64,000 bases of DNA, from contig MNRL01000010.1 in the NCBI GenBank assembly GCA_001915925.1, positions 6,140 through 70,139 on the forward strand, in the 5' to 3' direction. Source of the stretch: Clostridium sp. CAG:354_28_25. Lineage in GTDB: Bacteria; Bacillota; Clostridia; TANB77; CAG-508. Below are positions 50,942 through 63,470 of the stretch, in pieces; position 1 is the stretch's first letter; each line of letters opens with the position of its first letter. The notes under the pieces are model-generated. The model did no database searches and had not been told where the DNA came from. It was given only the letters and a program-made list of their open reading frames with translations. Made by a program: the position numbers and the translations under genes.

Positions 50942-53900
50942 ATGAAAAAATACATATTTTTTATAGTAGGCATTGGAATAATTCTAGCAGGATTATTAAT
51001 TTATAATGTTTACAATGTACAAAAAGAAAATACTAAAACATTTGAAGACCCAGGCTATATCTTGCAAAGTGCAAGTAGTCAGAGTCAAAAAATAGATAAG
51101 TATTATTTCAATGCAGATGAGGAATATAAAATTAAAAATAATCAAAAGGTTATTTTTAAAGATACTAGCGGAGATGAAGTTACAACAGGAAAAGATAACT
51201 TTATACACTATAATAATGGATCTATAAGTAGTTTAAAGAAAGGTGTATTAATAAACCTTGCTAATATAGACCAAGATCCAATTACATATTATAGTATCTC
51301 TGCAAACCAAGTAGTAAATAAACAAGGTGATAACTACTGGATAAATCATCTAAATGGAAAACTACAATTTACTAATTTAATATGGAAAATTTCTGATAAT
51401 AAATATTTAATAGCTGGAAATGGAATGACAGTTACATTTAATGATGGAACAACTAAAGAAATAAATGGTTATTTAGAATTAGAATATTTAGATAATCAAG
51501 TTATCAAAATATATAATCAAGAAATTATATATCAAACTATTTCTAGCAATGTGAATTTACAATTACCAGATAATATAGAGATAAATCTACAAAGTAAAGC
51601 AGTTAGTAAAAATGGTGAAACAAGAATGAACCTAGCTAACATGGTAATAGATTCTGATGATAATATAGAGATACAGGAAGAAGAAGAAAAAGAAAGTAAA
51701 AATGAAACAGAAGAACAAATGCAAAATGAAACTAGTGAAAATAAAAATGTACAGAATTCAGAAGATAATGATAAGACAAATCAAAATGTACATTCTAATA
51801 CAAATGGGGATGGAAGTATTCAATCTGGAGATGGTTCAATAAATACAGGAGAAACAACAGGAACAGGAGATTCACTTGGAACTGGCTCAAGCTCAGGATC
51901 AATTGCAGGTGGCACTGAAGAAGTTATAGAGGATTTACCAGAATTGGTAGCACCAGTATTCAAAGTTGAGAGCTTTGAAGTAGATTCTATAAGTTTAAAA
52001 GCACAGATAACTATAGAAGATAATGAATCAAGATTGGTAAGAGACCCTTATATTAAAATATTAGAAAATGCAACAGGAAAAACAGTATATGCTAAAGAAG
52101 AAGCATTAGGTACATATAACATTGATATTTCAGTTTCAACATTAACACCATATACAGACTATACATTAGTAATTGAATCAGGATATGATGTAGATGGAAT
52201 AACTTATACCAAAAATTTTGTATATAAAATATTTAAAACTAAGAGTGTAGGAATATCTTTTGAAAAAGATGTATTTACAAATAATTCTTTAAAATTCAAA
52301 ATAACAGTAGATTCAGATTCAAAAGTAAAAAGTGCACAACTATCATTAGTGTCTCAATCTGGATCAATAGATCAGACATATGAAGTAGGAAATGGAACAA
52401 CAGAAGGGTCAACAGCAGAATTTATAGGGCTACTTTCAAATACAGATTATACTATTAAATTAACAAATGTCTTATATGACGGACAAATAATATCTAATGG
52501 ATTTGAACAAGAGAAAACTTTTAAAACACTAAAAAATAAACCGGAAATTAGTGGCCCTGATTTTGAAATGGATAAAAGAACATCAACATTTACATTAAAG
52601 TTATTAAATTCAACCGATACAGATAATGGTATAGAGAAATATAGATACGAAATATATGATACAAGAATAAGCTTAGATGAAGGAACTCCTGTATATACTA
52701 GAGAAGTAGCAAATAAAGAAGATATTGTCGTAAACGTAGATGAAAAAGTCTTATTCAGAGGAGTACCTTATACATTTAAAGTTATAGCAGTATTTAATGA
52801 TAATGAAAAAACTGTTGAATATGAAAGCGAATATAGTGATGTTATGAAATTAGACGGTGTGGCATTTCCAACAGTAAGATTTGAAAAAGAAACTATAACA
52901 TATGAAAGAATACAAGGAAAATTAATAATTGAGGACCCAAATAATACTATTAGTAATGATGAAACAAACAAATTAATAATAACTTATACAGATTCAACAG
53001 GATATACAAGACAAATCATTTATCAAGGCGGATTAACAATTCCTATAGATGTTAATGACTTAAGAAGTAATGAAACTTATAAATTTAGAATATATACAAC
53101 AATAGACTTAAAAGATGATAACGATCCAATAGATGAATGTTATATTGGTGGTGCTATTATAAGAACATTAAATCCAGATCCTTTAATAGGAACGTTTATA
53201 CAAGACACAGAAGATACAAAAAATGCATTTAAAGTAAACTTTAATTTGAAAAAGCTAGTAACAGATACGAGTGGAAGTATAGATACAAATAATCCAGATG
53301 ATCCAACATTGCAAGACTTAGAGGCAAAAACACTTGCTAATTTAGAGTTTAGAATATATGCAGGACAACCAATTCAAAATGGAGATGGAACGGTTTCTAT
53401 GCCAGGAACTCCAATAAGGACTGTAAAAATAAAAGATGAATATGCACAGGATCCATATGCAAGTAAAATAAAAGAAGATTATTATGATAATGTAAAAACA
53501 ATAACACCTTCATTTTTTGGTGCAGATAATAAAGATTTTAAGGATTTAAAATATACAATTCAAGTTTTAAATGCAACTGACTACACATATGGTGGAGGAA
53601 ATACAATTCCGTTAGTAGAAGGGTTAGGAAACAGTTATTGTGTTATAACTTCAACCGGATATGTTCCTGATTATCCAGATGAACAAGAAAAAGCTATAGA
53701 TGTAACAACAATCAGAAACCGTGATAAAGAAGAATCTAGAACAGAATTAGATGCAGAAACAGTAGTTGGATATAAAGTGCAAGCAAGATATGATAACAGC
53801 CAAAATTATGCAACAAAAGTAATATATACAATGATTGACAGTGTAACAGGAGAAGCAATTTCAAGCCAGGAATTAGATGTAAGAGAAGACGGAATTATAC

Positions 53901-62855: not shown

Positions 62856-63470
62856 ATGTTAGATACAATACTTTACGAATTAAGCAAAGTTGCTTGGGTA
62901 TTGCCAATATTTTTAGGAATAATATTATTATTAAGTTTTATAATGTATTTAGTTACTAGAAAATTTAATATACACAAAAAAAGTGTAATGGTAAGTGGAA
63001 TGTTTATGGGACTTAGTAATAAGCAAATTATAATGATTATATCAATTTTTATAAGAACATTTTTAGTAATATTTACCGCTTGCATATATAGTAAAAGTAT
63101 ATTATTATATTTACTAATGATAGCTATTTCCTCTATAATATTTGCAATACTTAATTTAAAGAAAGCAATTTTAGAAATAGTAAGCACAAGTGCACAAATA
63201 GTAGCACTATATTTAATAAATATACTTACAAGTTATATGATAGAAGAAAGTTATGATACATATGTACTTGTAATAAAAATATGTTTAATTGTATTTTTAT
63301 TAGTATATGCAGTATATTTCTTCTTAAAGAATTTTGAAGATATTATTACGAACCACAAAAGGAGAACGGTTAATGAAGGAAGAAAAAGAAAATCAAAAGA
63401 AAAAAGAAGAGAAAACAAACTTAAAGGAAACAAAGGAAAAGAAAGTATCCAAGAAAGCAGTGAAAACTAA
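62856..63470 (+). CDS. Polytopic membrane protein (about 6 TM helices) with highly basic C-terminal tail. Unassigned; not a recognisable ATP synthase a subunit.
   Basis: Hydrophobic helices throughout. One intramembrane Arg (SIFIRTFLV) but no LRLFGN-type a-subunit motif. Confidence 0.45.
   Translation: MLDTILYELSKVAWVLPIFLGIILLLSFIMYLVTRKFNIHKKSVMVSGMFMGLSNKQIIMIISIFIRTFLVIFTACIYSKSILLYLLMIAISSIIFAILNLKKAILEIVSTSAQIVALYLINILTSYMIEESYDTYVLVIKICLIVFLLVYAVYFFLKNFEDIITNHKRRTVNEGRKRKSKEKRRENKLKGNKGKESIQESSEN

Follow-up and report, generated by a model that had tools for sequence, protein, structure and literature searches.

Mycoplasmas have F1-like ATPases, Type 2 and Type 3, that supply energy to surface systems (PMC12994834, PMC11864180). 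The Type 3 “F1-like X0” ATPase serves the MIB-MIP antibody-cleavage system (Beven 2012, PMC3369863; Berlureau 2026, PMC12994834); its gene set is apparently co-transcribed with the genes of the surface proteins that need it, and a mechanical transfer of energy across the membrane has been proposed (PMC12994834). The Type 2 “G1-ATPase” is the gliding motor of Mycoplasma mobile and works with Gli123, Gli349 and Gli521 (Toyonaga 2025, PMC11864180). According to Beven et al., the mycoplasma F1-like ATPases have no equivalent in other bacteria (PMC3369863), and our literature search likewise found systems of this kind described only in mycoplasmas and the cluster presented here in no paper. That cluster lies towards the end of a 64,000-nucleotide (nt) stretch of contig MNRL01000010.1 from Clostridium sp. 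CAG:354_28_25 (the whole stretch is called the window), where genes for a divergent F-type ATPase stand among genes for membrane-anchored surface proteins, some of them very large. Judged from its sequence, it is most likely a new variant of the F1-like ATPase coupled to surface proteins. Like Type 3, it has alpha-, beta-, gamma- and epsilon-like genes without an ion-translocating Fo, clustered with surface-protein genes; like Type 2, it combines an F1-derived motor with very large surface proteins, those of M. mobile being the “leg” and “crank” proteins that the motor is thought to drive.

Every open reading frame (ORF) named in the sequence-only reading of this stretch, which a model had made from the letters, was found on the + strand in the place assigned to it. 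The components of the cluster within the window are the following (aa, amino acids; TM, transmembrane):

50942-56395, +: G1, giant N-anchored surface protein, 1817 aa; TM helix, base region, linker, at least seven Fn3-like repeats
56450-57931, +: G2, small N-anchored protein, 493 aa from GTG; one Fn3-like repeat
57946-58191, +: c-like subunit, 81 aa; two-helix hairpin, GxGxGxG packing motif, GRNPETK loop; PF00137 at 32.7 bits
58195-58965, +: predicted b-delta fusion, peripheral stalk; 256 aa from GTG, 253 aa from ATG at 58204
58983-60332, +: alpha-like subunit, 449 aa; PF00006; Walker A, Arg finger SVSRLG, N-terminal helix region
60329-61123, +: gamma-like central shaft, 264 aa; PF00231 at 95.7 bits, under all NCBIfam gamma cut-offs
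61204-62571, +: beta-like catalytic subunit, 455 aa; PF00006; GGAGVGKT, GERSREG, Walker B, DELSEED
62564-62854, +: epsilon-like subunit, 96 aa; probably the N-terminal beta-sandwich only; gene position fits
62856-63470, +: conserved 5-TM membrane protein, 204 aa; placed where a stator subunit is expected; no invariant Arg
63460-64000, +: 5' part of the gene for a 418-aa anchored protein; Lys/Glu-rich cytoplasmic tail, TM helix, all-beta “base” domain

The association of the ATPase genes with the surface-protein genes is conserved. A scan for beta relatives, with one genome per species, gave 323 loci at a loose threshold that may have admitted ordinary beta genes; the best 80 of the 323 were fetched and their gene content was determined by tblastn with all window proteins. 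The co-occurrence of Fn3 and ATPase genes, proposed earlier as a check on the idea of a surface machine, is borne out, with at least one of the four surface-protein genes adjoining beta in 78 of the 80 species-level loci; of the other two, one sits on a contig of just 3.7 kb, and the other on a contig that begins within the c gene, lacks the upstream side for that reason and carries only ordinary-sized genes over the 10 kb downstream. All six ATPase genes together with G1 and G2 are present in 57 loci, and a homologue of G1 stands in the same position in 63 of the 80. The usual order, all on the same strand, is G1, G2, c, b-delta, alpha, gamma, beta, epsilon, 5-TM gene, 418-like gene and a downstream giant. 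The shared gene set persists in relatives whose beta is as little as 64% identical and whose G1 has only 22-30% identity, and it stays intact where the order is permuted, with c upstream of G1 (L053 and L075) or with the 418-like gene before c and gamma after the 5-TM gene (L084 and L086). A metagenome scan with an alignment of c added loci from human gut, activated-sludge and bioreactor samples; these range from 24 to 58% G+C, against 22-49% in the genome loci, and have the same gene content. No further alpha- or beta-like gene was found within 10 kb in any locus.

The F1 part of the set has kept what catalysis needs. Alpha and beta match PF00006 at 236 and 229 bits and carry between them Walker A and B, the catalytic Glu and the Arg finger; across the family GGAGVGKT and GERSREG are present in 82 of 82 beta subunits and Walker B in 77 of the 82, while the Arg finger is kept in 69 of 76 alpha subunits. 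By these motifs the catalytic core is intact and under selection. Alpha had been noted as short, and rightly so: its residues 2-436 align to 5-432 of a 502-aa canonical alpha, leaving about 70 C-terminal residues absent. Members of the epsilon family have 77-100 aa, and their sole profile match in the PDB, in register and at a weak E of 0.74, is the mitochondrial delta chain 5fl7_H; the mitochondrial delta chain is the counterpart of bacterial epsilon. The 96-aa protein of the window is too short for the C-terminal inhibitory helices, and their absence fits a hydrolase.

The distance of these subunits from known types was gauged by bit scores against curated models and PDB chains rather than by trees. 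The canonical NCBIfam cut-offs are missed by beta (atpD, 447.1 against 462.85), alpha (atpA, 407.3 against 484.45), gamma (62.1 against 194.45) and c (25.7 against 43.95), and alpha and beta fall under every curated NCBIfam cut-off, canonical or mycoplasmal. Both are nevertheless nearer to canonical bacterial F1 in the PDB (beta 367-375 bits, alpha 320-330 bits) than to the M. mobile G1-ATPase (PDB 9io5; 303 and 279 bits, respectively).

Some relatives carry longer subunits. Betas of 614-773 aa occur in seven relatives (P0030, P0048, P0051, P0057, P0058, P0072 and P0075) and were suspected of being gamma-beta fusions; P0058, the one compared, has no similarity to gamma, and its extra length is a C-terminal Glu/Lys-rich extension. 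Extended alphas span 546-890 aa overall (562 aa in L043). Charged cytoplasmic extensions seem to come and go in this system.

The membrane part, on the other hand, appears to have lost the ion path. In a gap-free alignment of c, Ala60 occupies the position of the ion-binding Asp or Glu (D61 in E. coli, E56 in PS3, E65 in I. tartaricus, and the corresponding residue in chloroplast c); the reference c and a sequences used for alignment, tblastn and hhalign were entered by hand. That c lacks the ion-binding carboxylate, as the sequence-only reading had noticed, holds for the whole family: among 92 distinct helix-2 sequences from 166 loci the position is T, A, S, V, L or M and never acidic, and only one of the 92 has any acidic residue in helix 2. 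The protein otherwise resembles canonical c in its glycine packing motif and in an NP motif near the C-terminus, as in Ilyobacter and chloroplast c, and at 63-100% identity across genome loci it is among the most conserved proteins of the cluster. We considered its C-terminal FNPL as an external docking motif and dropped the idea, since Ilyobacter and chloroplast c end in ANPF.

The same reading had recognised no subunit a, and we too found none in the cluster or its flanks by Pfam (PF00119), NCBIfam, PDB profile search or hhalign. A tblastn search with E. coli a gave no match in the 80 metagenome loci probed, and none of the 166 loci has an a gene within 10 kb. A normal a and a normal delta gene next to the cluster, outside the window, had been named as a finding that would speak against a specialised machine; neither adjoins the cluster on either side, flanks beyond the window included. 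Directly after epsilon, in almost every relative, stands instead the gene of the 5-TM family (176-204 aa, five predicted TM helices), which has no invariant charged residue and gave only noise against Pfam and PDB by sequence and profile. In hhalign against subunit a of E. coli and spinach the family scored a probability of 0.1%, which gives no support for a relationship and is not proof of absence. With a carboxylate-free c ring and no subunit a, the complex would have no means of turning ATP hydrolysis into an ion gradient, and the cluster is by these features neither a canonical F1Fo nor an N-ATPase.

The peripheral stalk appears to have been kept. The 256-aa protein between c and alpha, earlier called “b-like” in a set said to have no delta, gave no match beyond noise against Pfam and PDB by sequence or profile, alone or as a family (297 representatives at 50% identity among 1.84 billion proteins). 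In its AlphaFold2 model (predicted local distance difference test, pLDDT, 92.5), a helix spanning residues 3-75 would supply the TM segment and stalk, followed by a flexible linker (76-106) and a delta/OSCP-like domain of seven helices and four strands (107-255). A Foldseek search of solved structures with this model returned ATP synthase delta/OSCP chains for all of the top approximately 38 matches, with 7njn_d among the best. The delta/OSCP fold makes the protein a predicted b-delta fusion, so the claim that delta is missing falls, and the complex would have a peripheral stalk of b plus delta. Such a stalk fits the retained N-terminus of alpha, which is absent from both mycoplasma F1-like alphas.

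The surface proteins form the other half of the cluster. In G1 the N-terminal TM helix leads into a beta-rich juxtamembrane “base” and an acidic low-complexity linker (approximately residues 236-335), beyond which lie the repeats. G2 likely starts at TTG 56459, giving 490 aa as in public gene calls, and consists of a TM helix, a base region, a Gly/Ser/Thr-rich linker, an Fn3-like repeat (306-385) and a C-terminal stretch (approximately 390-493) with no profile match. Of the two Fn3 giants described in the sequence-only reading, the first is indeed one, at 1817 aa; the second, with 490-493 aa and a single detectable repeat, is not. Nor does the cluster end at 63470, as that reading had it: the gene of the 418-aa protein overlaps the 3' end of the 204-aa gene, leaves the window and stops 716 nt past it, and on a 1.85-Mb contig of the same species, from which the downstream content was read, it is followed by N-anchored Fn3/GLUG proteins of 1615 aa and at least 1100 aa. 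Ahead of its TM helix the 418-aa protein carries about 185 aa of Lys/Glu-rich cytoplasmic tail, a species-specific feature. In relatives the downstream giant is a single ORF, which reaches 2452-2831 aa before running past the end of the fetched locus. The 1615-aa and at least 1100-aa ORFs are about 320 nt apart (17170-17490 in L001; compare 14010-21365, one ORF, in L007), and the giant of the window's species may have been divided by a real split, a frameshift or phase variation. GLUG motifs occur in the downstream giants, and an ALK/LTK glycine-rich domain in one relative.

G1, G2, the 418-aa protein and the downstream giant each open with one TM helix and have no LPXTG; a low-complexity linker follows the TM helix and base in all of them except the 418-aa protein, which has the TM helix and base domain only. 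A profile of one G1 repeat finds seven copies in G1, four to five in the 1615-aa protein and one in G2. The repeats had been assigned to Fn3 on sight; a profile of 30 of them matches Fn3 domains of fibronectin and tenascin structures in the PDB (E 1e-11 to 1e-8, with 1e-11 for fibronectin), while PF00041 matches 12 of the 30, always under the gathering score. We therefore call them Fn3-like, because the repeat profile matches Fn3 domains of known structure though Pfam fn3 stays sub-threshold. For the base regions, hhalign gives probabilities of 90-92% for the pairs G1-G2, G1-418 and 418-1615 and at most 36% for the other three, and a HMMER profile of the 418-aa family, run for two iterations, retrieved neither G1 nor G2 nor the 1615-aa protein. 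A 267-aa relative of the 418-aa protein was modelled (pLDDT 82.7); its TM helix is followed by some 190 residues that fold as an all-beta domain. This domain had no match among solved structures, and the base-domain family, compared with Pfam and PDB by sequence and profile, gave only noise and no Pfam match.

Set beside Type 3, then, the cluster differs both in what it has and in what it lacks. Type 3 alone includes a protein with 12 TM helices, a cytoplasmic one of 19 kDa and one of 87 kDa that carries two TM helices at its C-terminus (PMC12994834). It has no c and no b homologue, and its alpha is without the N-terminal helix, whereas the present cluster follows the canonical gene order and has c, a TM-anchored b-delta, a 5-TM protein and an alpha with its N-terminus. 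Fn3 giants take the place of MIB/MIP as partners, the window proteins miss the Type 3 NCBIfam cut-offs (MSC_0618, 398.7 against 570; MSC_0619, 308.6 against 520), and the hosts are Clostridia and Bacilli with the standard genetic code, unlike the carriers of Type 3.

Type 2 differs in other respects. G1-beta has a long N-terminal dimerisation extension, absent from the 455-aa beta of the cluster, and G1-alpha lacks helix H1; the motors are twinned and joined in chains with phosphoglycerate kinase (PGK), with no TM stalk and no c. The cut-offs of the MMOB1660/1670 families are also missed by the window proteins (386.4 against 600 and 370.1 against 850). The Gli genes of M. mobile sit in a different locus from its ATPase genes, unlike the surface genes of the cluster, which flank the ATPase genes. 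A fusion of b plus delta has been put forward as the hypothetical origin of GliD in M. mobile (PMC11864180), an idea that parallels the b-delta fusion described here and makes it plausible, by analogy, that the fusion of the cluster represents an earlier stage.

Compared with canonical F1Fo, the order c, b(-delta), alpha, gamma, beta, epsilon and the catalytic motifs are the same, and the b-delta fusion with its delta/OSCP-like stalk domain recalls the mycobacterial enzyme (7njn_d); what the cluster lacks are subunit a, the c-ring carboxylate, the C-terminal helices in its epsilon-like protein and about 70 C-terminal residues of alpha, and what sets it apart is its obligate linkage to surface-protein genes. 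The N-ATPase (atpDCQRBEFAG), which some prokaryotes carry as a divergent F-type operon in addition to the housekeeping one, keeps a, an ion-binding c and AtpQ/AtpR, while the cluster has no extra small membrane genes of that type and its products score far from the alt_F1F0 cut-offs (beta 403.5 against 752, alpha 359 against 750.5, c 13.9 against 130.85). On these comparisons the cluster would work like Type 2 and Type 3 and yet is a member of neither family, because the cut-offs are missed, the accessory genes differ, and c, a TM-anchored b-delta and the alpha N-terminus are retained. The “analogous but distinct” relation to the mycoplasma systems suggested by the sequence-only reading was apt.

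The explanation that we favour, and that we hold to be on balance probable, is that the cluster encodes an ATP-hydrolysing, non-ion-pumping rotary derivative of the F-type ATPase that acts on the anchored surface proteins. We infer the assembly into one complex, the hydrolase-only mode and the surface proteins as load from gene content and conservation. Intact catalysis, a missing ion path and an epsilon without its inhibitory domain are most simply read together as an obligate ATP hydrolase whose output is movement, and since the anchored surface proteins are its only conserved partners, G1, G2, the 418-aa protein and the downstream giant would be the load. In such a machine an alpha3beta3 head would turn a shaft of gamma and short epsilon fixed to the c ring, the single-TM b-delta fusion would hold the head still, and the 5-TM protein, probably part of the stator, would replace subunit a as its membrane component. 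Torque or cyclic movement of the ring could pass to the TM helices or base domains of the anchored proteins. The linkers of G1, G2 and the downstream giant would be long enough to cross the wall, and the Fn3 fibres outside could be moved, twisted or reset, with adhesion turnover, ligand release or surface movement as possible outputs. The anchors might either ride on the rotor, a precedent for which are the single TM helices of accessory proteins inside V-ATPase c rings, or be cranked from the stator side, as in the M. mobile model (PMC11864180, PMC12994834).

Several points weigh against this explanation. The physical route from the ring to the cell exterior is purely hypothetical. The 5-TM protein may hold a very divergent a-like fold, and the a subunit or a carboxylate-bearing c of a canonical atp operon, if one is present, could join the set. 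The base domains look related, by hhalign, in three of the family pairs, without confirmation by HMMER. Four loci (L057, L058, L063 and L082) have no detectable homologue of the 418-aa protein or the downstream giant, so that not every surface component is obligatory. Finally, a conserved hairpin lies between G1 and G2, and it is the spacing of the genes that suggests their co-transcription with the ATPase genes.

A bolder version of the favoured explanation goes further, and we regard it as unlikely though worth stating: a widespread ATP-driven rotary surface organelle of walled gut Bacillota, in which a carboxylate-free c ring, spun by F1 against a stator of b-delta and the 5-TM protein, would turn or crank the anchors of wall-crossing Fn3 fibres as a new motor for motility or adhesion, and which would be an ancestral-like intermediate between F1Fo and Type 2/3. 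The intermediate position is suggested by the retention of c, TM-anchored b-delta and the alpha N-terminus and by the relationship of RF39/RFN20-type Bacilli to Mycoplasmatales.

Among the alternatives proper, the one that survives best, while still improbable, is that the giants have an ATPase of their own for export, unfolding or assembly. FliI-FliH-FliJ of flagellar and type III export are related to F1 beta, b-delta and gamma, and giants of 1800 to more than 2800 aa might need an ATPase of this kind for crossing the membrane or for the insertion of their anchors. FliI, however, is a homohexamer with no alpha/beta pair, and the export ATPases lack the alpha/beta heterohexamer, epsilon, c subunit and membrane-anchored stalk that the cluster encodes; conversely, they use an export gate, of which the cluster has no homologue, and the FliI model scores far under the F1 scores. 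N-terminal signal-anchor proteins are moreover ordinary Sec substrates, as the giants would then be.

Very unlikely, in our judgement, is an ion-coupled ATPase that borrows a, and maybe c, from an operon elsewhere, or that uses the 5-TM protein as an unconventional ion path, with the surface genes as regulatory neighbours only. The canonical order of the genes and a beta that falls 16 bits under the atpD cut-off would suit it, and public annotation does name beta, gamma and c as “F0F1 ATP synthase” subunits. It has to contend with 92 c sequences that are never acidic where the ion would bind and of which only one carries an acidic residue anywhere in helix 2, with the lack of an a gene within 10 kb in each of 166 loci, and with a 5-TM protein without an invariant charged residue; the surface linkage, for its part, survives gene shuffling and a range of 22-58% G+C, which makes a chance neighbourhood hard to accept. 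That the cluster is a decaying, non-functional remnant of a housekeeping ATP synthase is scarcely credible: the hosts do include small-genome lineages (TANB77-like, RF39), and a, the carboxylate and the C-termini of epsilon and alpha are lost, but the ORFs are all intact in about 150 loci, the catalytic motifs are invariant, c is 63-100% identical while the Fn3 genes go down to 22-30%, and the identical losses are common to every member and are thus old and stable.

If the cluster is a surface-directed rotary ATPase, it is not a rare one. A comparable arrangement would exist in several hundred species, by the number of b-delta representatives (297) and of beta-relative loci (323, at the loose threshold), many of them abundant in the human gut, and the c protein is found on at least 1000 contigs. 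How the mycoplasma F1-like systems transfer force across the membrane is still an open question (PMC12994834, PMC11864180); with its c ring and peripheral stalk retained, the cluster offers a simpler and more readable system for a rotary ATPase that no longer moves ions, and it may reveal the origin of the mycoplasma motors. Annotation as ordinary ATP synthase subunits also means that metabolic models may wrongly credit these organisms with an ATP synthase. In GenBank (OKZ60664-OKZ60670) beta is an “F0F1 ATP synthase subunit beta” and alpha, gamma, c, epsilon and the 5-TM protein are each a “hypothetical protein”; other public sources label gamma and c as ordinary ATP synthase subunits.

The hosts include the wholly uncultured RF39-type lineage, TANB77-like Clostridia and possibly cultivable Lachnospiraceae. 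The record labels read Clostridia, Bacilli, “Mycoplasma sp. CAG:956”, Candidatus Faecimonas (which is RF39; PMC8035907) and Lachnospiraceae/Roseburia/Agathobacter, and some are clearly wrong; we regard those of L076, L079, L051 and L065 as doubtful. The labels “Muribaculaceae” and “Ignavibacteriales” look wrong: the bins that carry them share 87% identity and have 26% G+C. The record “Thermoguttaceae bacterium LCP21S3_D1” bears no mark of a metagenome-assembled genome (MAG); it matches a Roseburia sp. MAG over 13 kb with 94% identity and may point to a cultured carrier of the cluster. The source of the window, to judge from exact protein matches, is a human-gut MAG, also named Candidatus Merdicola sp., which we take to belong to the TANB77/CAG-508 lineage of GTDB; the window has a G+C content of about 28% and uses the standard bacterial genetic code. 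Since it also carries rpoB/rpoC, thioester/SpaA-type adhesins and a peptidoglycan hydrolase, the locus is chromosomal and the organism probably walled, and a search of PLSDB plasmids with the b-delta and c proteins gave zero matches, so that the cluster is no known plasmid cargo.

Two regulatory features accompany the genes:

50873-50901, +: candidate sigma-70-type promoter, TTGAAA, 17-nt spacer, TAACAT, with TG; 40 nt upstream of G1; weak match to consensus
56409-56434, +: RNA hairpin between G1 and G2, 10-base-pair stem, -14 kcal/mol, z -2.5, no U tract

The cluster is packed like an operon. The junctions G2/c, c/b-delta, b-delta/alpha, alpha/gamma, gamma/beta, beta/epsilon and epsilon/5-TM measure 14, 3, 17, -4, 80, -8 and 1 nt, and AGGAGG lies immediately 3' of the G2 stop codon, ahead of the c start. 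The sequence-only reading was accurate on this architecture: the junctions are short or overlapping as it said, no terminator-like site was found on the + strand in 48000-64000 where it had seen no strong terminator, and the U-tract-less hairpin is there. Promoter-like matches in the region numbered 127 against 106 expected, so that many arise by chance.

The hairpin is kept in five sister species with compensatory changes in its stem (stem pairs at the G1-G2 junction in the window and in L007-L012: GGGGAATT/AATTCCCC, GGGGGAA/TTCCCCC, GGAGGA/TCCTCC, GTGGGGG/CCCCCAC), and in none of them, nor in the window, is it followed by a coding-strand U tract. Because it is kept in this way, we take it for a functional RNA element, probably one that acts on mRNA stability or processing or as a leaky attenuator, and less likely a full terminator, and it may set the ratio of G1 to the downstream genes.

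Other genes of the window may be mentioned briefly. A single-module nonribosomal peptide synthetase (NRPS) with a terminal reductase (Condensation, AMP-binding, PP-binding, NAD_binding_4) lies at 15528-19805 on the - strand and is preceded by a free-standing AMP-binding enzyme on the opposite strand (20090-21634); the NRPS-reductase architecture is that of gut Clostridia making peptide aldehydes or pyrazinones. Several very large Gram-positive adhesin/pilin-type proteins with thioester (TED), SpaA prealbumin-like, SdrD_B and DUF11 domains, encoded at 190-4763 and 35456-44396, form a second set of surface giants, unrelated to the Fn3 cluster. A pilin from TANB77 has been tied to immunotherapy response, and belongs to a Tad/Flp-type system, unlike the adhesins of the window (PMC11680825). 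Just upstream of the cluster, at 44861-47677, a gene for a zeta-toxin family kinase is followed by a gene for a 355-aa protein with no Pfam match and by a PHP-domain gene, with overlapping junctions; this module may be a toxin-antitoxin or defence module.

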